This document shows positions 6,947-27,925 of a stretch of 64,000 bases of DNA, in pieces. Where the stretch lies: the NCBI GenBank assembly GCA_964275585.1, contig CAXYCJ010000013.1, forward strand, positions 152,021 to 216,020. The letters are read 5' to 3'. Source of the stretch: an uncultured SAR86 cluster bacterium (GTDB lineage: Bacteria; Pseudomonadota; Gammaproteobacteria; Magnimaribacterales; D2472). Made by a program: the position numbers and the translations under genes. Positions within the stretch are counted from its first letter, which is position 1, and the number at the start of each line of letters is the position of its first letter. The notes under the pieces are model-generated. The model did no database searches and was not told where the DNA came from. It saw only the letters and a program-made list of their open reading frames with translations.

Positions 6947-7023
6947 GGGCCTGTAGCTCAGTTGGTTAGAGCAGTGGACTCATAATCCATTGGTCGGAGG
7001 TTCGAGTCCTCCCGGGCCCACCA
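6947..7023 (+). tRNA. tRNA with CAT anticodon, most likely tRNA-Ile2 (lysidine-modified)
   Basis: GGGCCTG acceptor stem, anticodon arm GTGGA-CTCATAA-TCCAT, T arm GGAGG-TTCGAGT-CCTCC, encoded CCA; position after rpoD matches ileX-type tRNAs. Confidence 0.93.
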
Positions 7024-7107
7024 TTCATTAAAATCCTAGATAATACTAATAGAGAGTATTTCAGGTCTTGTTATTTTTATAAATTTTCTGTCATATACTT
7101 ATTAAAA

Positions 7108-7124
7108 ATTAAACAGTGTTTAAT
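7108..7124. promoter_or_regulatory. Perfect palindrome, probable TetR-type operator
   Basis: ATTAAACA-G-TGTTTAAT just upstream of the MMPL start. Confidence 0.55.
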
Positions 7125-7135
7125 CAAGGCAAAAC

Positions 7136-9841
7136 GTGATGGAAAAAATTCTTTTAAGGCTCACAGAATTATTTGGAAAAACTCCCAGCCTTATTCTTAA
7201 TTATAAAAAGCAAGTATTGACAAGCTTGGTGATCATCTCAGCATTTCTGTTGTATGGGGTTTTTAATCATACCGTTTTCGATATGTCTACTGACAGTTAT
7301 CTTGAAGAAGAAAATCCAGCACAAATAGCGCTGGATGAATTTCGCAGACAATTTGGCGGTGATGATTCTGTATTTATAATTTATGCTCCGAAAGATGGCA
7401 ATGTTTTTTCTCGTGAATCTTTAATTACAGTCCAACAACTAACTGATAACCTTGTTAACTGGAGAGATCTTGACAGGAGTGAATATCCCGAAATTCCGTT
7501 AGATGAGCTTTCCCATATTCGTAGAATCCAATCTCTCGCAAATGTTAAAGTCCAAGAAAGTATAGGAGATACATTAAGATCAGATAGACTAATTCCTAGA
7601 CAGCTACCAACCAGTGAGGCTGAACTCCAAAAAATTAAAGTTAGGGCTTTAAATCAACAGGATTATGTAGGAGTATTGTATTCAGAAAACGGTGAATACG
7701 GTGCAATACTGGTCCAGACAGACTTTGGAACGATACCGGTAGAAGGGTATGAATCTGTCCTAGATATTGCTGGCATTGAGCTGGCTGATGGCTTTGCAAA
7801 CTTTGATCTCACTTTTGACGATAATGCTGTTGTGCAAGACGTTGAATTTCAGGATACCGACCAATTGGCTTACTTCTCTTTTGATGAGGCCCTGACAGGG
7901 GTTTATCAAAAATATGCAAATGAGCTAAGCTTTTACACGGTTGGCACTCCTTCCATGATGGGGCAAATGCAAGGAGTGCTCAACCAGATGGCAGTGCTGG
8001 GCGTCCTAATGGTATTAATTTTTTCTCTGCTCTTATGGGTCTTGTTCCGCTCAGGAAGCGCACTAGTCTGGCCGATGGTCACCATAGCGCTCAGCGTTGC
8101 TTGGTGTTGGGGAATAACAGTTTGGATGGGTATTACTGTGTCCACAATGATCGCATTAACGGTGCTGCTTATTTTTGCCGTAGGAATTGCCGACTGTGTC
8201 CATGTGATGAGCGCTTATTTTAGTTTCAGACATGACGGTCAAGAACATAATACCGCCCTTTCACATGCTTACGAAAAAGTTGGCTTGGCTCTTTTACTTA
8301 CAACATTAACCACATCAGCGGGGGTGTCAGTCCTGGCAACCTCAAATCTAGAGCCAATCAAGGTTTTCGCTGTTATGTCAGCCCTAGGGGTCATTCTGGC
8401 CTTATTTTTTACTATAGTGCTCCTCCCAGTTCTTTTGGATCTCTGGCATCCAGCAGCGGTTGAAAGCAAAGAAAAACCTAGTCTGGCTGATAGATTGGGC
8501 GCCAAGTGGAGCTCTATAAAATCTATAAAAAAATTGGTTGTCGGAACTTGCGCTGCCCTGGTGGTTTTTGCTTCGCTCGGCCTAATGCTGGGAGCATTTA
8601 TTAATTTCGTGATCGCTCTTACTTATTGGATAATCAACTCTCAAAGAGAAATACTTGCTCGGGTTCCCATAATTGTTCAAAAATCGCCTAAGCTAATATT
8701 AGGTATTTTTGGACTGGGCTTTATTGTCTGCATATATGGCGCAACCAAAATTCAAATCGATACAAACATTGCCGAAATGTTTAAGGCTGACCACCCTTTT
8801 ACTGCCGCTGTTGAAGTAGTTGATCAAAACATGTCAGGTGCTCAGAACATGGAAATAATGATCGATACTGGGGTAACTGACGGTATGCTTGATTCTAAGT
8901 TGCTTACCGCTGTTGATGATCTGCAGACCCGAGTTGAGAGCCGTTATCCTGAAATTATTAGACGAACTCATTCCCTCGCTAATATTGTAAAAGATACAAA
9001 TAAAATCATGAATGGGGATGATCCAGAGTTTTATAGAATTCCGGATTCAAACCAAGCAATTTCACAATTGCTTTTTATGTTTAATAGTGCAAACCCCGAA
9101 GATCGAAGAAACCTTGTGTCAGATGATTACAGCCGATCACACATAAGTATCAGTGCCCGAAATTTAGGCTCTTACGAATACAAAGAACTCTTTGACAATG
9201 TTTCATTGGATGTCCAAGAAACTTTTTCTGATATTGAAAAAGATTTCCCAAATTTGGATGTGAATTTAACGGGAAGCATGGCAACTCTAATGGTAATGGC
9301 TGATGCAATCGCTACCTCTCAATTTAATAGCTTTGCCTTAGCCCTGTTAATAGTAAGTCTGATTATGATCATTGCGCTAGGGTCTTTAGGAGGCGGTATT
9401 ATGGGTATGGTGCCCAATGCCATACCAGCTTTTCTCGCATTTGGTTTGATGGGTCTTTTTGGTATCCCTTTGGACGTGGACTCCCTATTAATAGCACCTT
9501 TAATCTTGGGCATAGCTGTCGATGATACTATTCATTTTATGACCCACTACAGAGTGGAATTAAGCAAAACGGGAAGCATAGCCGAAGCGCTAGACAGCGC
9601 AATAAAAGAGGTGGGACAGGCCGTCATGTTTACAACAATGGTCATAGGGCTTGGGTTTGCTGTCCTAAGCTTTTCAGATTATCTAGGAATGGCAAAGGTT
9701 GGCTTTTTTGGGTCTATAGCAATATTTGTTGCGCTACTTTGTGACCTTTTTCTTATTCCTGCGATGATTATAATTTTTAAACCAAAGTTCGGTGTAAAAA
9801 ATGTAAATACCAAGATTGATTTCCAAGGAGTTACTGGATGA
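7136..9841 (+). CDS. MMPL/RND family transporter
   Basis: Two TM repeats with GIADCVH and GIAVDDTIH motifs, and large periplasmic loops. Confidence 0.92.
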   Translation: MMEKILLRLTELFGKTPSLILNYKKQVLTSLVIISAFLLYGVFNHTVFDMSTDSYLEEENPAQIALDEFRRQFGGDDSVFIIYAPKDGNVFSRESLITVQQLTDNLVNWRDLDRSEYPEIPLDELSHIRRIQSLANVKVQESIGDTLRSDRLIPRQLPTSEAELQKIKVRALNQQDYVGVLYSENGEYGAILVQTDFGTIPVEGYESVLDIAGIELADGFANFDLTFDDNAVVQDVEFQDTDQLAYFSFDEALTGVYQKYANELSFYTVGTPSMMGQMQGVLNQMAVLGVLMVLIFSLLLWVLFRSGSALVWPMVTIALSVAWCWGITVWMGITVSTMIALTVLLIFAVGIADCVHVMSAYFSFRHDGQEHNTALSHAYEKVGLALLLTTLTTSAGVSVLATSNLEPIKVFAVMSALGVILALFFTIVLLPVLLDLWHPAAVESKEKPSLADRLGAKWSSIKSIKKLVVGTCAALVVFASLGLMLGAFINFVIALTYWIINSQREILARVPIIVQKSPKLILGIFGLGFIVCIYGATKIQIDTNIAEMFKADHPFTAAVEVVDQNMSGAQNMEIMIDTGVTDGMLDSKLLTAVDDLQTRVESRYPEIIRRTHSLANIVKDTNKIMNGDDPEFYRIPDSNQAISQLLFMFNSANPEDRRNLVSDDYSRSHISISARNLGSYEYKELFDNVSLDVQETFSDIEKDFPNLDVNLTGSMATLMVMADAIATSQFNSFALALLIVSLIMIIALGSLGGGIMGMVPNAIPAFLAFGLMGLFGIPLDVDSLLIAPLILGIAVDDTIHFMTHYRVELSKTGSIAEALDSAIKEVGQAVMFTTMVIGLGFAVLSFSDYLGMAKVGFFGSIAIFVALLCDLFLIPAMIIIFKPKFGVKNVNTKIDFQGVTG

Positions 9842-12240: not shown

Positions 12241-13659
12241 TCATGGCATTATGACTGCTTTAGTTTCTAGGCACTCTTCTAAGCCGTGAACGCCATGCTC
12301 TCTGCCATTACCTGAAGATTTGTAACCTCCAAAAGGTGCTCCCGTTCCTCTAGCACCGCCATTGATAATAACTTGGCCCGCACGAATTTTCCTTGCAACT
12401 TTGCTCGCATGTTCAGGCTCACCTTGAACGTATCCGGCTAATCCATATTCAGTATCATTGGCAATCTCTATAGCTTCTTCTTCGGATTCATATTTTAGGA
12501 TTGATAAGACTGGACCAAAAATCTCTTCTCTTGCAATAGTCATGTCATTGGTTACATTTGCAAATACTGTAGGCTTTACATAAAAACCTTTTGTGTAACC
12601 TTCGGGCTTTTCAACGCCACCAGCAACCAACATTGCACCTTCTTCAATTCCTATATTTATCATCCTTAGGATCTTTTCATATTGAGGTTTATTAGCTATG
12701 GGTCCAATTCTAAATTCTCCCTGAGGATCACCAACAGTGGTGCTGTTTGCTGTTTTAACTGCAAATTCAACTGCTTTGTCATAATTTTTTGCAGAAACCA
12801 GCATTTTTGTTGGCGCATTGCATGACTGGCCTGAGTTTAAAAAGCAATGTCCGGCACCGCCTCTAACTGACTTCTCAAGGTCTGCCACATCATCAAGGAC
12901 TATATTTGAAGATTTACCACCCAGTTCTTGGTGCACTCTTTTAACAGAAACCGCAGATGCTTGAGCAACAGCTATTCCTGCTTCAGTTGAGCCTGTAAAT
13001 GACATCATCGCAACATCAGAGTGATCTGATAAGGCAGCGCCTACTATAGGGCCATATCCATTTACCACATTAAACACACCATCTGGAACCCCCGCTTTAT
13101 CAAACACTTCTGCGAGAAGCAAAGCGCAATATGGAGAAATCTCACTTGGCTTTAAAACCATTGAGCATCCCGCTGCAAGAGCAGCTGAAGCTTTTGTTGT
13201 CATTTGATTCATGGGCCAATTCCATGGTGTGATCATTCCTACGACTCCAATAGGCTCTCTAATTAATGTGTAATCACCTTCTCTTTTTTCAAATTCATAT
13301 TCTTTTAGAGCATCTAGAGTCTCATGTAAATTTTTAATTCCTGTGGATGCTTGAGCTTTGTCTGAGAGCCAGAGTGGGGCACCCATTTCTTCTGTAATAC
13401 TTTGAACTAAATCAGCATACCTATTTACATATTCGGTAATAATGTTGTTTAAGATCTCAATGCGATCTTCTTTTGATGTTAGTTGATATTTTTTGAATGC
13501 CTCGGATGCTGCTGAGACTGCTTTATCAATATCGCCCCTTGTTCCAGCTGTAACATGTCCTATAAGCTCCTCATTTGCAGGATTGATAACCTCAATTTTT
13601 TTATTTGATTCTGATTCAACCCATGCACCATTTATATAAAACTGTAATTTATCTTTCAT
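12241..13659 (-). CDS. Aldehyde dehydrogenase family protein
   Basis: ITPWNWP, FTGS, ELGGK, catalytic Cys in SGQSCNA, EEIFGPV; ATG at 13659 follows AGGA. Confidence 0.95.
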   Translation of the reverse strand: MKDKLQFYINGAWVESESNKKIEVINPANEELIGHVTAGTRGDIDKAVSAASEAFKKYQLTSKEDRIEILNNIITEYVNRYADLVQSITEEMGAPLWLSDKAQASTGIKNLHETLDALKEYEFEKREGDYTLIREPIGVVGMITPWNWPMNQMTTKASAALAAGCSMVLKPSEISPYCALLLAEVFDKAGVPDGVFNVVNGYGPIVGAALSDHSDVAMMSFTGSTEAGIAVAQASAVSVKRVHQELGGKSSNIVLDDVADLEKSVRGGAGHCFLNSGQSCNAPTKMLVSAKNYDKAVEFAVKTANSTTVGDPQGEFRIGPIANKPQYEKILRMINIGIEEGAMLVAGGVEKPEGYTKGFYVKPTVFANVTNDMTIAREEIFGPVLSILKYESEEEAIEIANDTEYGLAGYVQGEPEHASKVARKIRAGQVIINGGARGTGAPFGGYKSSGNGREHGVHGLEECLETKAVIMP

Positions 13660-13714
13660 ACTCAAATCCTATTAATTTAATGCTTAGCCTAACAAATTAT
13701 CAAATACATAGATT

Positions 13715-13734
13715 AGGCAACCATATGGTAACCA
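13715..13734. promoter_or_regulatory. Tandem TGGT-N-ACCA operator-like motif upstream of the ALDH gene
   Basis: AGGCAACCA-TA-TGGTAACCA, same layout as 16854-16873. Confidence 0.55.
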
Positions 13735-13787
13735 ATAAGAAGAAAATAAAAAGCATGAATAACTGTAAACACCTTTAAAAAATAAAA

Positions 13788-14345
13788 TTAAACGAATGAC
13801 TGAGGTTCTCTCGAAAGTATTTCTTTAATCATTGGTAAAAAATAATCTAGAGATTGCGTTTCATAATTCGGATCAAATGATTCCTGATCCCACTTTGAGC
13901 AAAAATCTATGCAGTCCTGATAGTAAGGATGGTCAATATATTTTTCCCTTAAATTTCTATCTTTTTCATAATGATGCATCCAGTAATAACCTTGAAATAA
14001 TCCATGATGAAGAATTATCCAATAATTTTTCTCACTTATATACGGTCTTAAAACTGCTGCAGAAGCTTGAGAGTGATTGGATGGGGATATAGCATCACCT
14101 ATATCGTGAAGTAGAGCACAAACTATTGTTTCAGTATCTGCTCCATCCCTCTCTGCTCTTGTTGCTGTTTGAAGGCAATGTTGAAGCCTGCTAATTTGAT
14201 ATGGAGATTCATCATCCATCGTTTGAAGCCATTGTATTACTCTTTTAAATACACTTCTTTCATTCTTTGAATCATGAATTGCTATAAGATCATAATCTTT
14301 CTTAGTTCCTTCATCCATTGATATAAATCCAACTTTTTTATACAA
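13788..14345 (-). CDS. HD-domain metalloprotein (related to PhnZ/TmpB, candidate diiron oxygenase)
   Basis: H(CLQTA)...LLHDIG...H...HH...D metal-ligand pattern; 5 bp downstream of the BBOX-like gene. Confidence 0.8.
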   Translation of the reverse strand: MYKKVGFISMDEGTKKDYDLIAIHDSKNERSVFKRVIQWLQTMDDESPYQISRLQHCLQTATRAERDGADTETIVCALLHDIGDAISPSNHSQASAAVLRPYISEKNYWIILHHGLFQGYYWMHHYEKDRNLREKYIDHPYYQDCIDFCSKWDQESFDPNYETQSLDYFLPMIKEILSREPQSFV

Positions 14346-14350
14346 CTTAA

Positions 14351-15439
14351 CTATCTCCTTAAACTGTTATTTTTATAAAGAATAAAATTATTTTCTATAT
14401 TATCCATTTCATAATATGCGTCCTGGAGATGACGTTTGCCATTAAGCTTAAATTCATTCCTACCATGAAGAATTCGATGAGCAGAAACCAAAAGAATATG
14501 TCCTGCTTCAAGTCGAAATTTTGATTTGTATTTTTGGCTATTAATTCTTTTACATAGTTCATGATAAGCCTCATAAAATAAATCAACATTTTTCTTATGT
14601 GGATCTATCATTTGCATTAATTGATTTGAGTACCTGAATACAACAATCTCGTTATTAGCATTTAATCTAATAATTGGTTCATTTGTATATGTCTCATTTT
14701 CTTCATCAAATTCTCTAAATGGAACTGAAAAAGTACTTAAAATATTAAAATAGTTAGGGAAATCGTTTCTTAAATCCCTAACCACTGAATACCCATCAAC
14801 TATAATAGATTCTCCGCCTGTAGATTCATTGGCTAGCATATGGAGAGCCTGCACACTTGGCGGCCATGAATAACTAGCAAAATCATTATGTGGAGGGACT
14901 GCTAGCGAGGTATGCGCAATATTATATACATGACCATCGACAGATACATTGTGAATTCGCTCAAATAATACCTCCCTAATAGGGCCGAGCCTTAGAGACA
15001 GTTCTTCTAATGAGTTTGGAATGCATGGAGCATTTTTAATACATATTGCTCCTTTAGAAATAAAGTTGGAGATAGCATCTATGGCAGTATCATTCTTCTG
15101 AAGAAAATCATCCCAATTATAATAGTTAGGAATAAAATCATTAGTCCATAAAACTTTTTTAGGCTTTCTAGGTTTTTTTAAAAATTCTATATCTTGAAAA
15201 TTGATAGATGTCTTATGATCATCAGGCCAAACTATAATAATATTATTTTGATCCAGACATACGCTTTGGGGTTTTAAATCTACGGGGACAGAATCAAGCA
15301 TAAACCTCTTTTCTTGAGTTTCCTGCACTCTGCATTCATTGCAGGGGCAATTATCTCTTATCCATAGATATGGAAGCTCCAACCGTGCCTCTCTGTCATT
15401 TATCAAGTTGAGCGATGACTCATTAAGTTTAAAATTCAT
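14351..15439 (-). CDS. Gamma-butyrobetaine hydroxylase-like Fe(II)/2-oxoglutarate dioxygenase (TauD family)
   Basis: WIRDNCPCNEC...WPDDH zinc domain, HND facial-triad motif, RILHGR and RHLQDAY. Confidence 0.9.
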   Translation of the reverse strand: MNFKLNESSLNLINDREARLELPYLWIRDNCPCNECRVQETQEKRFMLDSVPVDLKPQSVCLDQNNIIIVWPDDHKTSINFQDIEFLKKPRKPKKVLWTNDFIPNYYNWDDFLQKNDTAIDAISNFISKGAICIKNAPCIPNSLEELSLRLGPIREVLFERIHNVSVDGHVYNIAHTSLAVPPHNDFASYSWPPSVQALHMLANESTGGESIIVDGYSVVRDLRNDFPNYFNILSTFSVPFREFDEENETYTNEPIIRLNANNEIVVFRYSNQLMQMIDPHKKNVDLFYEAYHELCKRINSQKYKSKFRLEAGHILLVSAHRILHGRNEFKLNGKRHLQDAYYEMDNIENNFILYKNNSLRR

Positions 15440-15461
15440 TTATTACACCTTATAATTAGGC

Positions 15462-15507
15462 GTCCCTTTTAGCAGCTCCTAGTGCGCAATCAGGACCAAA
15501 TCAACTA
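15462..15507 (-). ncRNA. SAM-II-class riboswitch (putative)
   Basis: Minus strand reads UAGU-U-GAUUU-G-GUCCU-GA-UUGC-GC-ACUA-GGAGCU-GCUAAAA-GGGAC, with P1 UAGU/ACUA and pseudoknot GUCCU..UUGC / GCUAA..GGGAC; ends 22 nt before the dioxygenase ATG. Confidence 0.75.
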
Positions 15508-15560
15508 TTTATCTTAGATAATACTATCCCCATCGTTAAAAAATTACAATTATTAATCTT

Positions 15561-16811
15561 TTAATGAATTCGGAATTTTTTTCTAAGACTCTTAATGCCG
15601 CTTGATTGCTGTACTTTTTTTGTTTTAAAAAATAATTCATGGTTTTTCTCTAATACATCAAGGTTATAAAGATAGTTAATCATGACGCCTTTTGATTGAT
15701 TAACCCCTTTTAAAGATAAATCAGCATTTAAATTTATCCTCTCTAAAATAGCCCCATTTCCTAAATGAAATTTAGCTACAGAATCATTGGGAAATCCATC
15801 TTCTCTATCTGAATCTATAAGATAAATTAATACTTGCTTAAGAAGAATATCTTCATCGATACTCTCATCTATAGATTTTTCTTTAAGCCATTTTGTAAAA
15901 CCAGGAGCTGGCGAAAGTGTTGCAAATTTATTGAGTCCCTCGATTTCTTGTTTTAATTGATGAGCTACATTTTTAATTAAAAAATTGCCAAATGAAATAC
16001 CTGAGAGGCCTTCCTGGCAATTTGAAATAGAATAAAAAACTGCTGTATTAATATCTTGATCCAGAGTAACGCTTCTATCAATCTTGATCACTTCATTAAT
16101 AGTCTCTGGCATGTTGTTGCTTAATGCAACTTCAACAAAAATAAGTGGCTCATTGGGTATTAGTGGATGAAAAAAAGCAAAGCATCTTCTATCTTCTGGT
16201 TCTAGTCTAGCCCTGAGATCATCCCAGGAATTAATTTGATGAACAGCCTCGTAAGCAATGATCTTCTCTAAGATATTGGCAGGAGTTGTCCAATCTATCT
16301 TTTGTAAAACTAGAAATGATGGATTAAACCAATGCTTAAATAAATCTAAAAGGCTTGCATCAAAGAATGCCAAGTCTGGATTGTCTTTTTTAAGAGATCT
16401 AATTCTCTCTCTGAGTCGGACTAATCTAAGGGTGCCTTCAGATGCTGTATTTAATCTTTTAAAGAGCTCGACCCATTGGGGCTCAGAAGCTCGAGAAATT
16501 ATCTCTAAGTTTTTTTGAGTCTTGTTTTCAGAATATTCTTTAGAGGCTTTTAATAAAGAATTAGAGTCTATGTCATACTTTTCTATAAGGGTATTAAAGA
16601 AATCAGTAAATTTTTTATCATCAAGAGCTTCTATTAAATTAGAAAGATGTTCTGCATATACCAATGAAGAAACTTCCCCACTTTTTGACATAACAGATTC
16701 TAAAGCCTTATTAATATCTTTATGCAGAATCCCAAAATCTCTTGAACGAAAATAGCCCCCCTTTATCGATCGGCTCATTATTGATGAAATTAGATTCTGG
16801 AAAAAGTTCAT
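15561..16811 (-). CDS. Malonyl-CoA decarboxylase
   Basis: YEAVHQI, DRRCFAFFHP, FYSISNCQ.GL.GISFGNFLIK and VAKFHLGNGA. Confidence 0.95.
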   Translation of the reverse strand: MNFFQNLISSIMSRSIKGGYFRSRDFGILHKDINKALESVMSKSGEVSSLVYAEHLSNLIEALDDKKFTDFFNTLIEKYDIDSNSLLKASKEYSENKTQKNLEIISRASEPQWVELFKRLNTASEGTLRLVRLRERIRSLKKDNPDLAFFDASLLDLFKHWFNPSFLVLQKIDWTTPANILEKIIAYEAVHQINSWDDLRARLEPEDRRCFAFFHPLIPNEPLIFVEVALSNNMPETINEVIKIDRSVTLDQDINTAVFYSISNCQEGLSGISFGNFLIKNVAHQLKQEIEGLNKFATLSPAPGFTKWLKEKSIDESIDEDILLKQVLIYLIDSDREDGFPNDSVAKFHLGNGAILERINLNADLSLKGVNQSKGVMINYLYNLDVLEKNHELFFKTKKVQQSSGIKSLRKKFRIH

Positions 16812-17020: not shown

Positions 17021-18694
17021 GTGAAAACAGATATAGAGATTGCTAGAAAAGCAGAACCAAGAACAATTGAGATAATTGCTGCTAAGTTAGGCATTAGCGA
17101 TGAATACCTTGAGCGTTACGGTAAATTTAAGGCTAAGGTTAACCTTTCAATTAATCGTGAAAAGCTCAAGGATCAAAATAACGGTAAATTAATTTTAGTT
17201 ACCGCAATATCTCCTACTCCTGCAGGAGAGGGTAAAACTACTACAAGTGTTGGCCTGGTCGATGGGCTGTGTCATATCGGTAAAAAAGCAATGATTTGTC
17301 TCAGAGAGCCAAGCTTGGGGCCATGCTTTGGTATGAAAGGCGGTGCTGCGGGAGGTGGATATGCTCAAGTAATCCCTATGACAGATATTAATTTACATTT
17401 TACTGGTGACTTTCATGCCATTGGAGCAGCTCATAATCTTCTCTCTGCGCTAATTGATAATCATATTCATTGGGATAATCAACTTAATATTGATCCTAGA
17501 AGAATTACTTGGAAGAGAGTGGTTGATATGAATGATAGGTCTTTAAGAGAAATTACATGTGGTCTTGGTGGAACTGGCAATGGCATACCTAGACAAAGTG
17601 GTTTCGATATAACAGTTGCTTCAGAAATTATGGCAGTCTTTTGTCTAGCATCAGATATTGACGATCTAAAAAAGAGAATAGGAAATATTGTTATAGGCTA
17701 TACAAGATCTAATGAGCCTGTAAGAGCAAAACAGTTAAACGCTGATGGAGCAATAACTGCACTATTGAAAGATGCATTTGAACCAAACTTAGTGCAAACT
17801 CTTGAGAATAATCCTGCATTCATACATGGCGGACCTTTTGCGAATATTGCGCATGGTTGTAATTCTGTTGTTTCGACCAAGACAGCATTAAAACTTGCTG
17901 ATTATGTTGTTACGGAAGCTGGATTTGGAGCCGATCTAGGCGCGGAGAAATTTTTTGATATTAAGTGTAGAAAATCAGGCTTAAAACCAGACGCTGTTGT
18001 TTTAGTTGCCACCACTAAAGCTCTAAAAATGCATGGTGGCATTAAAAAAGATGATCTTGGATCAGAGAATGTAGATGCTGTAACGATGGGCTGCAAGAAT
18101 CTTAAAAGACATATTGAAAATATTGGAAAATTTGGCGTCCCTGTCATTGTTGCGATCAATGACTATGTAACTGACACAGAAAAAGAACATGCTGCAATCA
18201 TTGACTATTGTCAAAATATTGGCGTTCAATGCAAAATTTCTTCTCACTGGGAAAAGGGCGGCAAAGGCGCAGCAGATCTTGCAGAAGAGGTTGCAAAAAT
18301 TGCTGATTCAAATTCTGCTGAATTTAAAACTTTATATGATAATAAAATGTCTCTGTGGGATAAAACTCAATACATAGCACAAAATATTTATGGTGCTGCA
18401 GACATAATTGCTGATAAGAAGATAAGAAATCAATTTCAGAAATTAGAAGATGATGGATTTGGCGAATACCCAATATGTATGGCTAAGACCCAATATAGCT
18501 TTTCGACAGATCCATTATTGATGGGTGCACCATCAGGACATGATGTTCCAATCAAGGAAGTCCGGTTATCAGCAGGCGCAGAATTTATTGTGGTTGTTTG
18601 TGGTGAAGTTATGACTATGCCAGGGTTACCTAAAATACCAGCTTCGGAAAATATAGACGTTGACGATAATGGACTAATTCAAGGATTATTTTAG
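17021..18694 (+). CDS. fhs: Formate--tetrahydrofolate ligase
   Basis: [35 protein letters not shown] and MTMPGLP. Confidence 0.98.
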
Positions 18695-18732
18695 ATATTA
18701 TGATTACAATTAAACTAAAAAGGAGAAAATAA

Positions 18733-19929
18733 ATGAAAATACTATGCATCTTATACGATGATCCAAAGGACGGAATGCCTTCAAGTTATCCACTAAAGGA
18801 ACTTCCTAAGCTAGAAAAATATCCTGACGGCATGACATTGCCAAATCCCAAAGGAAGAGATTTTACACCAGGCGAATTACTTGGTTGTGTGTCTGGTGAG
18901 CTAGGCTTGAGAAAGTTTTTAGAAGATAGGGGACACACACTAGTGGTCACATCTGATAAAGACGCCGAAGGTTGCACCGCAGATAAAGAACTAGTTGATG
19001 CTGATATTGTAATTTCACAACCATTTTGGCCTTATTACCTAACAAGAAAGAGAATGGAAAGTGCGCCAAATTTAAAAATGGCAATTACAGCTGGCATTGG
19101 TTCTGATCATGTAGATTTACAGGCCGCAATGGATCATAAGGTTGATGTCGTTGAGGTGACCTATTGCAATTCAAGGTCAGTAGCAGAACATATCGTTATG
19201 ATGATTCTATCTTTGGTGAGAGATTATCATAATCAACATAGGATAGTGAATGAGGGTGGGTGGCATATCGCCGATGCTGTGCAGAGATCTTATGATGTAG
19301 AAGGCATGAATGTAGGAACTATTGCTGCCGGTCGAATTGGCTATGATGTGCTAAGAAAAATGCATCCGTTTGATGTGCATCTACATTATTTTGATAAACA
19401 TAGATTGGATTCAGCGAAAGAACAAGAACTGAATTTAACCTACCATGATTCAGTTGAATCTCTGGTTGCAGTTTGTGATGTCATAAATATAAGTTGTCCT
19501 CTTCACCCCGAAACAGAGCATTTATTTAATGATGAGCTAATCAGCAAATGTAAACCTGGCGCATATATTATTAATACCGCCAGAGGAAAAATTTGCGATA
19601 AGGACGCTATTGTATCGGCATTAGAGTCTGGACAGTTAAGCGGATATGCAGGGGATGTTTGGTTCCCGCAACCAGCACCCAATGACCATGTTTGGAGAAC
19701 AATGCCACATCACGGAATGACACCACACACATCAGGCACCTCTTTATCGGCACAGACAAGATATGCCGATGGCGTTAGAGAAATATTGGAGTGTTTTTTT
19801 GATGGAGAAGAAATCAGAAATGAATATTTAATTGTTCAAGGCGGAGACCTTGCAGGCATGGGCGCTCATTCTTACACAAAAGGAACAGCAACGGACGGTT
19901 CAGAGGAAGCAGCTAATTTTAAAAAGTAG
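18733..19929 (+). CDS. fdh: NAD-dependent (metal-independent) formate dehydrogenase
   Basis: LLGCVSGELGLR, ISQPFWP, GIGSDHVD, AAGRIG, GDVWFPQPAP and TPHTSG. Confidence 0.96.
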   Translation: MKILCILYDDPKDGMPSSYPLKELPKLEKYPDGMTLPNPKGRDFTPGELLGCVSGELGLRKFLEDRGHTLVVTSDKDAEGCTADKELVDADIVISQPFWPYYLTRKRMESAPNLKMAITAGIGSDHVDLQAAMDHKVDVVEVTYCNSRSVAEHIVMMILSLVRDYHNQHRIVNEGGWHIADAVQRSYDVEGMNVGTIAAGRIGYDVLRKMHPFDVHLHYFDKHRLDSAKEQELNLTYHDSVESLVAVCDVINISCPLHPETEHLFNDELISKCKPGAYIINTARGKICDKDAIVSALESGQLSGYAGDVWFPQPAPNDHVWRTMPHHGMTPHTSGTSLSAQTRYADGVREILECFFDGEEIRNEYLIVQGGDLAGMGAHSYTKGTATDGSEEAANFKK

Positions 19930-21469: not shown

Positions 21470-22594
21470 ATGTACAAGACATCTAAAGTAGTTTTTAGCC
21501 CTCGCGTGAGAAAGTCACCGTACTTTAATTCGACCATAAAATATGGAGCACAAGCTTTTTCAGTTTATAACCATATGTATATGCCAGTTAGTTACGATGG
21601 ACCCGTCGAAGATTACAAAAAATTATTAAATGGTGTGCAGTTATGGGACGTGGGTGTCGAGCGACAAGTTCAAATCAAAGGCCCTGATGCGGAAGAATTA
21701 TCACAGTTTTTAACCCCCAGAAATATTAAAAAATGTGCAATCGGACAGGCAATGTATACACCTCTTGTGGACTTTAAGGGGGGATTAATCAACGATCCAG
21801 TAATGCTCAAGATTGATGAAGATTGCTATTGGTTTTCGGTTTCTGATGGAGATTTACTCTTATGGGTGCAAGGTATAGCAGCAGGGTATAAATTTGATGT
21901 AGATGTTGATGAGCCTGATGTATCACCACTTCAAGTCCAAGGCCCCAATTCAACAAAATTAATGGCTAAGGTTTTTGGAGATTGGGTGAATGATTTAGGT
22001 TTTTATAGGTTCAAGGAAGTAAATCATGAGGGAATCCCTATGGTTATTGCCAGAATGGGCTATAGCAAAGAACTTTGTTATGAACTTTTTCTTCAAGATC
22101 ACTCCAAGGGAGATGAGTTATGGGAAATGCTTTGGCAAGCAGGGCAAGATCTAAATATCAGCCCAGGTTCGCCAAACATAATCCTAAGGCTGGAAGGCGG
22201 AATAGTAAGTTATCTAGCAGACATAGATAGAACCAATAATCCTTATGAGGTTGGGTTAGACTGGATGGTTAATCTTGATCAGGAAGATGATTTCATTGGC
22301 AAAGATGCTTTACGTGAAATTAGCCTTAAAGGCCCAGAAAAGAAATTGCTAGGAGCTGAGATTCAAGGGGACCCCATAACCGTCTTTAATGAGGAGCCTT
22401 GGCCTGTTTTAATTGATGGCCAAAAGGTTGGATTTATGAATGCTGTTGTTTACTCACCTAGACTTAATAAAAATATATCTTATGTCATTCTAGATATTGA
22501 GCATGCCAGGATTGGGCAAGAAATAACCATCTCTTCACCAGAGAAAGAACTCACAGCAACAACAGTTGAGATTCCATGGTTAAATAGAGCATGA
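21470..22594 (+). CDS. DmdA-like THF-dependent demethylase (GcvT family)
   Basis: YNHM, LWDVGVERQVQI.GPDA, INDPVMLK and QVQGP; length and motifs resemble DMSP demethylase. Confidence 0.75.
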   Translation: MYKTSKVVFSPRVRKSPYFNSTIKYGAQAFSVYNHMYMPVSYDGPVEDYKKLLNGVQLWDVGVERQVQIKGPDAEELSQFLTPRNIKKCAIGQAMYTPLVDFKGGLINDPVMLKIDEDCYWFSVSDGDLLLWVQGIAAGYKFDVDVDEPDVSPLQVQGPNSTKLMAKVFGDWVNDLGFYRFKEVNHEGIPMVIARMGYSKELCYELFLQDHSKGDELWEMLWQAGQDLNISPGSPNIILRLEGGIVSYLADIDRTNNPYEVGLDWMVNLDQEDDFIGKDALREISLKGPEKKLLGAEIQGDPITVFNEEPWPVLIDGQKVGFMNAVVYSPRLNKNISYVILDIEHARIGQEITISSPEKELTATTVEIPWLNRA

Positions 22595-26658: not shown

Positions 26659-26687
26659 TTGACAGAATTGATACAAATAAATATTAT
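26659..26687 (+). promoter_or_regulatory. Sigma-70 promoter of the bhmT leader
   Basis: TTGACA-N17-TATTAT, which places +1 near 26693 at the riboswitch 5' end. Confidence 0.65.
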
Positions 26688-26689
26688 AT

Positions 26690-26742
26690 AAGTTCGTGAT
26701 TTGATCTTATTGCCGCGAGTTTAAATAAAGAGCTAAAACGGA
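26690..26742 (+). ncRNA. SAM-II-class riboswitch (putative) upstream of bhmT
   Basis: AAGUUCG-U-GAUUU-GAUCUUA-UUGC-CG-CGAGUUU-AAAUAAAGA-GCUAAAA-CGGA; P1 AAGUUCG/CGAGUUU; a methionine-synthesis gene follows. Confidence 0.75.
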
Positions 26743-26866
26743 AATTATTCCCAGGATTTAACTAAAAACACAATGTAGTTTTTTAAAAACAACATATGTG
26801 TAAGTTCGTTATTAGATTGTATATATCACAACATTAATTGAACTTGATTTTTTGAGGTATAGGGTA

Positions 26867-27925
26867 ATGAAAAGACAATTAATAGAAAGGTTAAATGAGG
26901 GTCCTGTAATTTGCGCAGAAGGCTTTTTATTTGAAATTGAAAAAAGAGGTTATCTCTCTGCAGGTGAGTTTGTGCCTATGGTGTCACTTGAGCATCCTGA
27001 AGCATTAGAAAATCTGCATAAAGATTTTCAACATGCAGGTTCTGATGTTGTTGAGGCTTTTACTTATAACGCTCATAGAGAAAAAATGAGAGTGATTGGC
27101 AAAGAAGAGCTTCTTGAGCCATTAAACAGAGCTGCATTACAGATTGCAAAAAAAGTGGCTGATAATCCAATTGGTGGGGGAGAGGCTAACTTGATGGCAG
27201 GCAATATTTCAAACTCTAATATTTGGGAAGAGGGCAACAAAGAAAGTCATGCGGAAGTTGAAAGAATGTTTAGCGAAATGGTTGAGTGGTCAGTAGATGA
27301 GGGAGCTGACTTATTGGTAGGTGAAACCTTTTATTACGCCGAAGAAGCATACTTGGCTCTAGATATTATTCAAAAAGCTGGATTACCATCAGTTATCACT
27401 ATTGCCCCAATGGCTGAAAATGTGATGAGAGACGGTGTGTCGATTATGGATGTTTGCAAAGAACTTGAGCAAAGAGGTGCCGATGTTGTTGGTATGAACT
27501 GCTTTAGGGGCCCAGACACTATGATGCCTTACCTAAGAGAGCTTAGAAAAGTTTTGAAATGTCATATGGCAGCTCTGCCACTTCCGTTTCGAACAACAGA
27601 GGCCAATCCAACTTTCTTTAACTTGCCTGATGACAACGGATGCTCATGCCCAGCTCCCCATGGAAGAACATTCCCAACGGCATTGGATCCTTTATATTGC
27701 AACAGATATGAAATACATGCTTTTGCTAAAGAATCTTTTGAGCTAGGCATTAATTATCTTGGTGTTTGCTGTGGTGCTACACCAATGCATATTCGTGAAG
27801 TTGCAGAAGCTGCAGGATTAACCGTCCCTGCAAGCAAGTACAGAGAAAACATGTCAAATCATTTTATGTATGGGAATAGCGAGAGAATTGCAGAACACAT
27901 GCAGGAATTTGGAGACAAAGCTTAG
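26867..27925 (+). CDS. bhmT: Betaine-homocysteine S-methyltransferase
   Basis: ICAEGFLFEIEKRGY, AGSDVVEAFTYN, and zinc ligands in GMNC and GVCCG; ATG at 26867. Confidence 0.9.
   Translation: MKRQLIERLNEGPVICAEGFLFEIEKRGYLSAGEFVPMVSLEHPEALENLHKDFQHAGSDVVEAFTYNAHREKMRVIGKEELLEPLNRAALQIAKKVADNPIGGGEANLMAGNISNSNIWEEGNKESHAEVERMFSEMVEWSVDEGADLLVGETFYYAEEAYLALDIIQKAGLPSVITIAPMAENVMRDGVSIMDVCKELEQRGADVVGMNCFRGPDTMMPYLRELRKVLKCHMAALPLPFRTTEANPTFFNLPDDNGCSCPAPHGRTFPTALDPLYCNRYEIHAFAKESFELGINYLGVCCGATPMHIREVAEAAGLTVPASKYRENMSNHFMYGNSERIAEHMQEFGDKA

Follow-up and report, generated by a model that had tools for sequence, protein, structure and literature searches.

We analysed a 64-kb stretch of DNA (hereafter the window) on contig CAXYCJ010000013.1 of an uncultured SAR86 cluster bacterium, whose genome (G000) is 87.5% complete, with a focus on a short leader RNA in front of a pair of predicted oxygenase genes. 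Both genes lie on the reverse strand (-). The first (14351-15439, -) encodes a 362-aa Fe(II)/2-oxoglutarate dioxygenase of the gamma-butyrobetaine hydroxylase (GBBH)/TmpA family, as assigned by Pfam, NCBIfam and structural comparisons, and is followed after a gap of 5 nt by a gene with a TTG start for a 185-aa HD-domain protein of the PhnZ/TmpB type (13788-14345, -), assigned by its Pfam HD domain, its metal ligands and an AF2 model. Upstream, a malonyl-CoA decarboxylase gene (15561-16811, -) is separated from the dioxygenase open reading frame (ORF) by a 121-nt intergenic region that holds the leader. An earlier interpretation of this DNA without database searches (the sequence-only reading) had proposed an S-adenosylmethionine (SAM) riboswitch of the SAM-II pattern before a BBOX-like dioxygenase gene and, 5 nt further on, an HD gene; this gene order was confirmed by the ORFs and their Pfam matches. 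The motifs that it had named (GAUUU, UUGC, GCUAAAA and the GUCCU/GGGAC pairing) were also found as described, between 15462 and 15507 (-), and a distance of 22 nt separates the end of GGGAC from the start codon at 15439 (ATG).

The SAM-II-type aptamer (15462..15507, -) is predicted to form an H-type pseudoknot, on the basis of the Rfam SAM_alpha model, a covariance model of our own (R1, see below), covariation and the motif pattern. Its helix P1 pairs UAGU (15504-15507) with ACUA (15480-15483), GAUUUG (15497-15502) would provide the third strand, P2a pairs GUCCU (15492-15496) with GGGAC (15462-15466), and P2b brings together UUGC (15486-15489) and GCUAAAA (15467-15473), all on the reverse strand. 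GAUUU, UUGC and GCUAAA of the leader align to the SAM-II model consensus. In the minimum free energy (MFE) fold, the hairpin ACGCCU/AGGUGU (15445..15463, -) holds the Shine-Dalgarno (SD) sequence AGGUG (15446-15450) and shares two bases at its 5' end with the 3' strand of P2a. The three-part pattern GATTTG-N4-12-TTGC-N8-24-GCTAAA occurred twice in the window, in this leader and in that of a BhmT-like gene, compared with 0.04 expected occurrences, and none of 100 shuffles gave two matches.

At the Rfam gathering score, which is 36 bits for SAM_alpha (RF00521, SAM-II), only tRNA was detected in the whole window. When the thresholds were relaxed, SAM_alpha was the sole riboswitch family that matched the leader, and the score of 12.1 bits (E 2.2 on 241 nt) fell below this cut-off, so the Rfam check that the sequence-only reading had proposed was weak taken alone. 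The dioxygenase leader ranked fourth among the SAM_alpha sites of the genome (E 3.3), and the SAM-V model (RF01826) had no match at E<=10 in this leader and 16 related loci. The third-ranked SAM_alpha site (G000 C15:51947-52020, 15.8 bits) was ∼90% identical to the dioxygenase leader, from the AATTGTAATTTTTTAA block through the SD sequence, and is followed by a metF remnant of 21 codons and by metK. Further relatives of the leader were identified by BLAST before metF in four other genomes. R1, the covariance model built from those four metF leaders, scored the dioxygenase leader at 42.7 bits (E 3e-8).

Of 139 genomes in the family, 40 carried the R1 element (25 of 31 in g1, the genus of the window, 9 of 9 in g18, 3 of 3 in g19, plus two weak matches). 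An order-wide sample of 151 genomes yielded 16 with the element, three of them among the 13 genomes of one genus in another family, and the two loci read in this second family precede metF. Each genome had one copy, and two copies were present only in G000 and G011. Of the 38 single-copy loci read, 17 were located before a metF-type N-terminus and 16 before a metK N-terminus; the remainder comprised four loci in which the rule of taking the first ATG led to one that starts no gene, and one weak match before no gene. SAM_alpha was also the sole riboswitch family that matched the ortholog leaders, in 8 of the 12 loci given. Since these leaders scored only 18.7-23 bits, an entire SAM-II-type subfamily, to which they belong, sits below the curated threshold. 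Thus, the low Rfam score of the dioxygenase leader is offset by its homology to metF/metK leaders, which shows a conserved element, and the identification as a SAM-II-type pseudoknot in the sequence-only reading was upheld by this homology and by covariation.

Covariation was analysed in 39 homologues (35 distinct) aligned to the model. The closing pair of P1 (columns 12-33) was UA in 21 sequences, UG in 9 and CG in 5, with none unpaired; in P2a, pair 21-57 was UA in 23, CG in 6 and UG in 5, again with none unpaired, and pair 24-53 was UA in 17 and UG in 15. The covariation score was 0.252 vs 0.191 for shuffles, none of 500 shuffles reached 0.252, and registers slid by 1-3 columns scored 0.097 or less, although these shuffle counts overstate the support because the sequences are related to one another and the alignment was fitted to the P1 of the model. 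Moving the P2a register by one position paired slightly more cells (85.9%) but gave less covariation (0.218, reached by 4 of 500 shuffles), and the original register (register A) was therefore preferred. GATTTG, TTGC and GCTAA were identical in all 39 homologues as read by eye, the next base being A or G. An SD-type hairpin 3' of P2a was present in the MFE fold of most of 36 distinct leader tails; in these counts, which come from single-sequence folds, the column-62 pair was UA in 19, AU in 7, UG in 4 and CG in 1, and several pairs changed on both sides. The 3' strand of the hairpin is the SD sequence in both metF-type and dioxygenase-type leaders. Across this set of aligned leaders, P1, P2a and the SD hairpin covary.

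Several features of the relatives' leaders were also observed. In G000 (L013, G000:C15:50450-53520, ∼1430-1500, -), the 21-codon metF remnant MKISYEFYPPKDNNYQKRKIL* lies between the variant SAM-II leader and metK, and 12 of 30 relatives' leaders read run directly into metK; on the basis of the remnant and these direct metK leaders, a leader-metF-metK order appears to have lost metF on repeated occasions. Three of the relatives' metK leaders (L061, L065 and L071) retain the metF-type SD hairpin, followed by a UUUUCCUCC segment that, as read by eye, is complementary both to GAGGUGGAAAA of the hairpin and to the metK SD sequence AGAGGAAAA. It is possible that UUUUCCUCC forms part of a relay with three components by which the SAM signal reaches metK, which would fit stabilisation of the hairpin by SAM. 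L053, L055 and L080 each have an additional, canonical SAM_alpha match (23.6-28.3 bits) on the other strand at a distance of 100-200 nt from the metF leader, which gives back-to-back SAM-II elements on divergent genes.

Copies of the dioxygenase leader were found in G000, G011 and four metagenome contigs, that is, six sequences from three lineages; the fixed-spacing pattern used for the metagenomes was strict and returned 8 stretches only, and does not amount to a census. The 44-nt core showed 2-4 changes across the three lineages (counted by eye), the upstream spacer, hairpin loop and early codons varied, and the hairpin pairing was kept through its changes (ACGCCU/AGGUGU, ACACCU/GGGUGU and ACGUCU/AGGCGU). 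The AATTGTAATTTTTTAA block was common to the G000 metK leader and all five dioxygenase leaders that reach that far. This shared block points to a putative promoter (15521..15549, -) with a -35 element TTGTAA (15544-15549), a 17-nt spacer and a -10 element TAGTAT (15521-15526), which may have been duplicated together with the leader; a consensus promoter scan did not list TTGTAA-17-TAGTAT, in which only 8 of 12 positions match. In one metagenome contig, an intact metF is preceded by this leader subtype and is the likely donor of the copy. In G011 (L097, G011:C1:129230-143730, 6995-8121), the dioxygenase frame breaks after ∼23 codons and resumes at residue 180. Since the near-identical metagenome contigs L178 and L185 are intact over this stretch as far as they reach, the break appears to be either a strain-specific disruption or an assembly fault.

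The dioxygenase and HD genes were adjacent in eight genomes of the genus, where the pair occupied one of three sites within a one-carbon island common to all of them. A survey of such pairs for upstream SAM riboswitches, which had been proposed in the sequence-only reading, gave a divided answer: two of the eight (G000 and G011) had the duplicated leader and one (G017) had the pair behind a SAM-II-led metB, whereas five had no SAM element. In G017, the pair is located 15 nt behind a 383-aa Cys/Met-family pyridoxal phosphate gene that is 75% identical to its G000 copy, and the latter passes the cystathionine gamma-synthase (metB) equivalog model (542 bits vs 504.55). The metB leaders of both genomes are canonical SAM-II elements (G017, L089 8294-8370, -, 30.3 bits, E 0.006; G000, L011, G000:C6:83376-86452, 1501-1577, -, 32.6 bits), and each is followed by a terminator-like stem and U-run as read by eye. 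It should be noted that even these canonical elements of the lineage miss the Rfam cut-off of 36. Taking the duplicated leader and the metB placement in G017 against the leaderless relatives, SAM control of the pair appears to be lineage-specific but to have arisen twice. Sequence comparison across these loci establishes that the dioxygenase leader was copied and maintained, and that the pair is linked to SAM-II a second time, independently, in G017. Two distant dioxygenase homologues (53-55% identity) had no HD neighbour; ∼1.2 kb upstream of a distant dioxygenase homologue, an IMES-1 RNA motif was detected (L095, G040:C2, 4545-4735, +; 129.2 bits, cut-off 81).

With regard to the proteins, the dioxygenase ORF matched Pfam TauD (109.8 bits) and GBBH-like_N (41.4 bits), and its closest solved structures were human BBOX1 (1.7e-38) and TmpA (8.7e-28). 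The iron ligands H184-x-D186...H325 were invariant and the cysteines of the CxCxxC zinc motif (C31, C33 and C36) nearly so. F159, H163 and H176 align to BBOX1 Y177, W181 and Y194 (Y, F and Y in TmpA), which we take to be the residues that form the aromatic cage for the trimethylammonium group in BBOX1.

The HD ORF matched Pfam HD with 31.6 bits. H56, H80, D81, H91, H114 and D153 were invariant in 13 diverse homologues, down to 59% identity, and the protein has the H..HD..H..H..D motif that the available portion of one article gives as the ligand motif of HD mixed-valent diiron oxygenases (PMC8177086). The HD protein is therefore predicted to be such an oxygenase. Its AF2 model (pLDDT 82.4) had only ten significant PDB matches by Foldseek, all of them PhnZ/TmpB chains (E 3e-6 to 4e-5, TM 0.59-0.67), the next match having an E of 0.059; the best was PhnZ (TM 0.63-0.67, E 3e-6, identity 22-25%). 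The proposal that the pair consists of a BBOX/TmpA-like hydroxylase and a PhnZ/TmpB-like HD oxygenase was thus borne out by profile, structure and ligand comparisons. The YxxE substrate-gating loop described for PhnZ/TmpB in the same portion of that article (PMC8177086) had no counterpart in the pairwise alignment, where Y49 of the HD protein falls on E27 of PhnZ. A start at Met10, suggested by one gene caller, was rejected because V5 and F7 are invariant across phyla. The ESM Atlas contained only 'HD domain protein' clusters for this protein. The pair is not an uncommon one, and its HD family comprises more than 2,361 sequence clusters, almost all of ∼185 aa, and extends over SAR86-type and other Gammaproteobacteria, SAR11, SAR202, SAR324 and Acidimicrobiia. 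As of 2025, MIOX, PhnZ, TmpB and SmaX were the only known HD oxygenases according to the available portion of a recent article (PMC12186529).

Downstream of the HD gene, on the same strand and 122 nt further on, is a betaine-aldehyde-dehydrogenase-like aldehyde dehydrogenase (ALDH) gene (12241-13665, -; Pfam Aldedh, 493.7 bits), which scored 403.4 bits with the betaine-aldehyde dehydrogenase model TIGR01804 (cut-off 668.6). It is possible that ALDH is the third gene of a dioxygenase-HD transcript, and a scan of 13600-15700 revealed no terminator-like sites. Further investigation of gene neighbourhoods was based on 80 HD loci from public genomes. A TauD-superfamily gene adjoined the HD gene in 19 of them. 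Ten Pelagibacteraceae loci (L121, L123, L125-L128, L131, L133, L134 and L142) had the conserved row AMP-binding-TauD-HD, with a distant TauD and a convergent KAS-III-like gene, and nine of them begin with an ALDH gene 50-51% identical to that of the window. In four loci from some Gammaproteobacteria (L098, L104, L108 and L117), a gene of the same HD family follows an Asp/Arg-beta-hydroxylase-type gene, which makes another hydroxylase-HD pairing, and L098, the sole annotated locus of that kind, has an adjacent sulfotransferase-family gene. Genes for MtgD-like pterin methyltransferase and/or RACo were present in 8 of the 80 loci. In three of these eight, the dioxygenase-HD pair lies between MtgD-like/RACo genes and those for dimethylglycine dehydrogenase, sarcosine oxidase or serine dehydratase, and in the other five the HD gene is in or beside such a cluster. 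Rows of this kind are glycine-betaine demethylation clusters according to the available portion of PMC12478193. On the basis of this gene context, the enzyme pair is associated with betaine catabolism in other taxa.

A BhmT-like gene, which the sequence-only reading had placed in the same cluster, does occur near the pair, 11 kb off (26852-27925, +; Pfam S-methyl_trans, 137.1 bits), and has a SAM-II leader of its own (26683..26757, +), a canonical aptamer with a SAM_alpha score of 29.4 bits (E 6.7e-5 genome-wide). It is one of two PF02574 homocysteine S-methyltransferase genes in G000. A profile search of G000 revealed no MetE (PF01717), MetH activation domain (PF02965), B12-binding domain (PF02310) or pterin-binding domain (PF00809), although MetE and MetH are not proven absent because the genome is only 87.5% complete. 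The PF00809 result covers FolP-type, MetH-type and MtgD-type domains, none of which was found in this incomplete genome. The sole MTHFR match in G000 was a weak 288-aa homologue inside the window. As far as it has been read, the SAM-II-type regulon of G000 would comprise metB, the BhmT-like gene, metK and the dioxygenase-HD pair.

Taken as a whole, these data favour, with a probability of about 0.6, a diverged SAM-II-type leader that was copied from a metF/metK leader and switches on a methyl-donor-making enzyme pair at low SAM. The RNA part of this explanation is very probable, whereas a methyl donor as the product of the pair is tentative and somewhat short of an even chance. The leader, with its likely promoter, was copied from the metF/metK leader of the lineage. 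SAM binding by the leader would then lock the SD hairpin and block translation, so that the dioxygenase and the HD enzyme would be made only when SAM is low. To judge from TmpA/TmpB, PhnY/PhnZ and SmaO/SmaX, the pair might alpha-hydroxylate an onium acid and then cleave a C-P or C-C bond oxidatively. The likely substrate would be an onium acid other than trimethylammonioethylphosphonate (TMAEP) and gamma-butyrobetaine, and the product glycine betaine or a related methyl donor. This donor could feed the BhmT-like homocysteine methyltransferase, apparently the main methionine route in G000. A bolder version would make the pair a new and widespread marine route that alpha-hydroxylates and oxidatively decarboxylates an abundant onium propionate (beta-alanine betaine or dimethylsulfoniopropionate (DMSP)) to glycine betaine or dimethylsulfonioacetate; SAR86-type bacteria without MetE/MetH would have wired it twice into the SAM regulon, low SAM triggering methyl-donor scavenging for BhmT. 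In this specific form the proposal is unlikely.

A number of observations count against the favoured explanation. As regards the RNA, besides the low Rfam score, the dependence of the shuffle counts on the alignment and that of the hairpin counts on single-sequence folds, P1 has only 4 bp with a bulged U, and the MFE z-scores of the leader (0.09 and 0.03) were about 0, although such scores are uninformative for a pseudoknot. In addition, the two-base overlap of the SD hairpin with P2a leaves the route from SAM binding to the SD sequence uncertain. As regards the distribution, the five other genomes of the genus with the pair have a short upstream region of their own and no second R1 copy, and no SAM_alpha match was found at E<=5 in the two of these five loci that were scanned. 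Beyond the genus, none of 15 pair- or HD-containing loci from other taxa had a riboswitch at the gathering score. As regards the enzymes, the dioxygenase scored 220.4 with NCBIfam GBBH (TIGR02409, cut-off 414.75) and 202.2 with TmpA (NF049936, cut-off 400), and the HD protein scored 45.5 with Phn-HD/PhnZ (TIGR03276, cut-off 214.6) and 35.9 with TmpB (NF049941, cut-off 300). H163 and H176 were conserved in the HD-linked subfamily, and histidines at two aromatic positions argue against a classical trimethylammonium cage. Because of the missed equivalog cut-offs and the two cage histidines, the substrate is probably neither TMAEP nor butyrobetaine. The incompleteness of G000, which bears on the apparent lack of MetE and MetH, belongs to the same side of the balance.

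Three other explanations have to be weighed against the favoured one, and the first two concern what the enzymes do. The pair might be isofunctional with TmpA/TmpB and convert TMAEP or its mono-/dimethyl relatives to glycine betaine (or dimethylglycine or sarcosine) and phosphate, with the SAM leader adding methyl-donor logic. Both proteins have TmpA and TmpB among their nearest characterised relatives, the hydroxylase gene likewise precedes the HD gene, and the product would fit the glycine-betaine clusters of other taxa. However, the scores are far under the equivalog cut-offs (202.2 vs 400 and 35.9 vs 300), histidine stands in place of two aromatic residues of TmpA and BBOX1, the YxxE loop known from the available portion of PMC8177086 has no counterpart in the alignment, and the annotated ORFs around the pair include no phosphonate transporter or Pho-type context, all of which makes this equivalence unlikely. 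Alternatively, the pair could serve sulfur or homocysteine supply, for example by a TauD-like attack on an organosulfur onium compound (taurine betaine or DMSP-like), and this would explain the metB operon and the downstream ALDH. That the G017 pair shares one operon with a cystathionine gamma-synthase gene agrees with such a role, as do the sulfonate-cleaving enzymes in the TauD superfamily (by Pfam name), the ALDH genes found downstream here and in the Pelagibacteraceae rows, and a DmdA-like gene in the same island (407.8 bits vs 410). Yet TauD-type sulfonate cleavage needs no HD partner, and other taxa link the pair to glycine betaine, dimethylglycine and sarcosine genes rather than to sulfur genes; we thus regard a sulfur role as quite improbable.

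The remaining alternative concerns the RNA, namely that the copied stretch has been retained solely for its promoter and ribosome-binding site, the aptamer before the dioxygenase being a non-functional passenger. Copying of the whole promoter-to-SD block, the low Rfam score and the presence of the pair in most relatives without such a leader would all be in line with this possibility. However, the 44-nt core has accumulated only 2-4 changes in three lineages while the spacer, hairpin loop and first codons diverged, the changes in the hairpin preserve its pairing, and SAM-II linkage is found independently in G017. On this evidence a mere passenger is very improbable, and a copied leader that responds to SAM is preferred.

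A structure of the SAM-II metX riboswitch was reportedly described by Gilbert in 2008. The leader shares with SAM-II the H-type pseudoknot, the GAUUU third strand, a triplex core of descending UUGC and ascending GCUAAA, a P2a of 4-5 bp and a position before methionine and SAM genes. It differs in its P1 of only 4 bp, its shorter loops and its scores (12-23 bits vs a cut-off of 36), in a conserved SD hairpin that abuts P2a and replaces a terminator or an SD sequence inside P2a, in its SAR86-type gammaproteobacterial host, and in its controlled genes, which include metF, metK and the oxygenase pair. In both SAM-II and SAM-V, the third strand lies in the P2 groove, and P2a has ∼5 bp in most SAM-II members, according to the available portion of Huang and Lilley (2018, PMC6061858); the architecture of the leader fits this description. 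The same portion of that source describes for SAM-V the fold and binding core of SAM-II, translational control and an occurrence in small-genome marine bacteria (PMC6061858). The dioxygenase leader departs from SAM-V in failing to match its model at E<=10, in a P2a of 4-5 bp compared with the 2 bp given there for SAM-V, and in the separate hairpin that holds the SD sequence.

The enzyme pair resembles known two-enzyme cascades in several respects. TmpA/TmpB convert TMAEP to glycine betaine and phosphate (PDB 6npb and 6npa). As in that system, a GBBH-like Fe/2-oxoglutarate hydroxylase is directly followed by a small PhnZ-like HD protein with six diiron ligands; the differences are the missed equivalog cut-offs, the histidines at two cage positions, the lack of a YxxE loop match, the predicted SAM riboswitch control and a one-carbon and methionine context rather than one of phosphorus. 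The HD protein finds its best structural match in PhnZ of the PhnY*/PhnZ system, which converts 2-aminoethylphosphonate to glycine and phosphate (PDB 4mlm and others). The two-step cascade logic is shared, whereas the identity is only 22-25% and the hydroxylase here is of the GBBH type with an N-terminal zinc domain. SmaO/SmaX, which produce aminomalonate from Asp according to the available portion of PMC12186529, also combine an Fe/2-oxoglutarate hydroxylase with an HD oxygenase that cleaves an alpha-hydroxy acid, and offer a precedent for C-C rather than C-P cleavage. SmaX is described there as having a single iron and acting on peptides, in contrast with the HD protein here, which keeps all six diiron ligands.

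A riboswitch tells which metabolite the cell links to a gene, and a predicted SAM sensor attached twice independently ties this orphan enzyme pair to the methionine and methyl-donor economy. The chemistry of the pair could represent a further step in the marine cycling of betaine or DMSP. In addition, AT-rich streamlined genomes hold a SAM-II subfamily that falls short of the Rfam cut-off, and their riboswitch regulons are therefore under-annotated. A search of the available literature for SAM-riboswitch-controlled dioxygenases or SAR86 SAM riboswitches found none, the list of SAM-V gene associations in Poiata (2009) being outside that search. Finally, the surroundings of the pair contain other one-carbon genes. 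A DmdA-like aminomethyltransferase gene (21470-22594, +) scored 407.8 bits with an equivalog cut-off of 410 and is followed by two GcvT-family genes, and genes for FTHFS and formate dehydrogenase are located at 17021-19929. The island in the window thus looks like a methyl-group oxidation centre.

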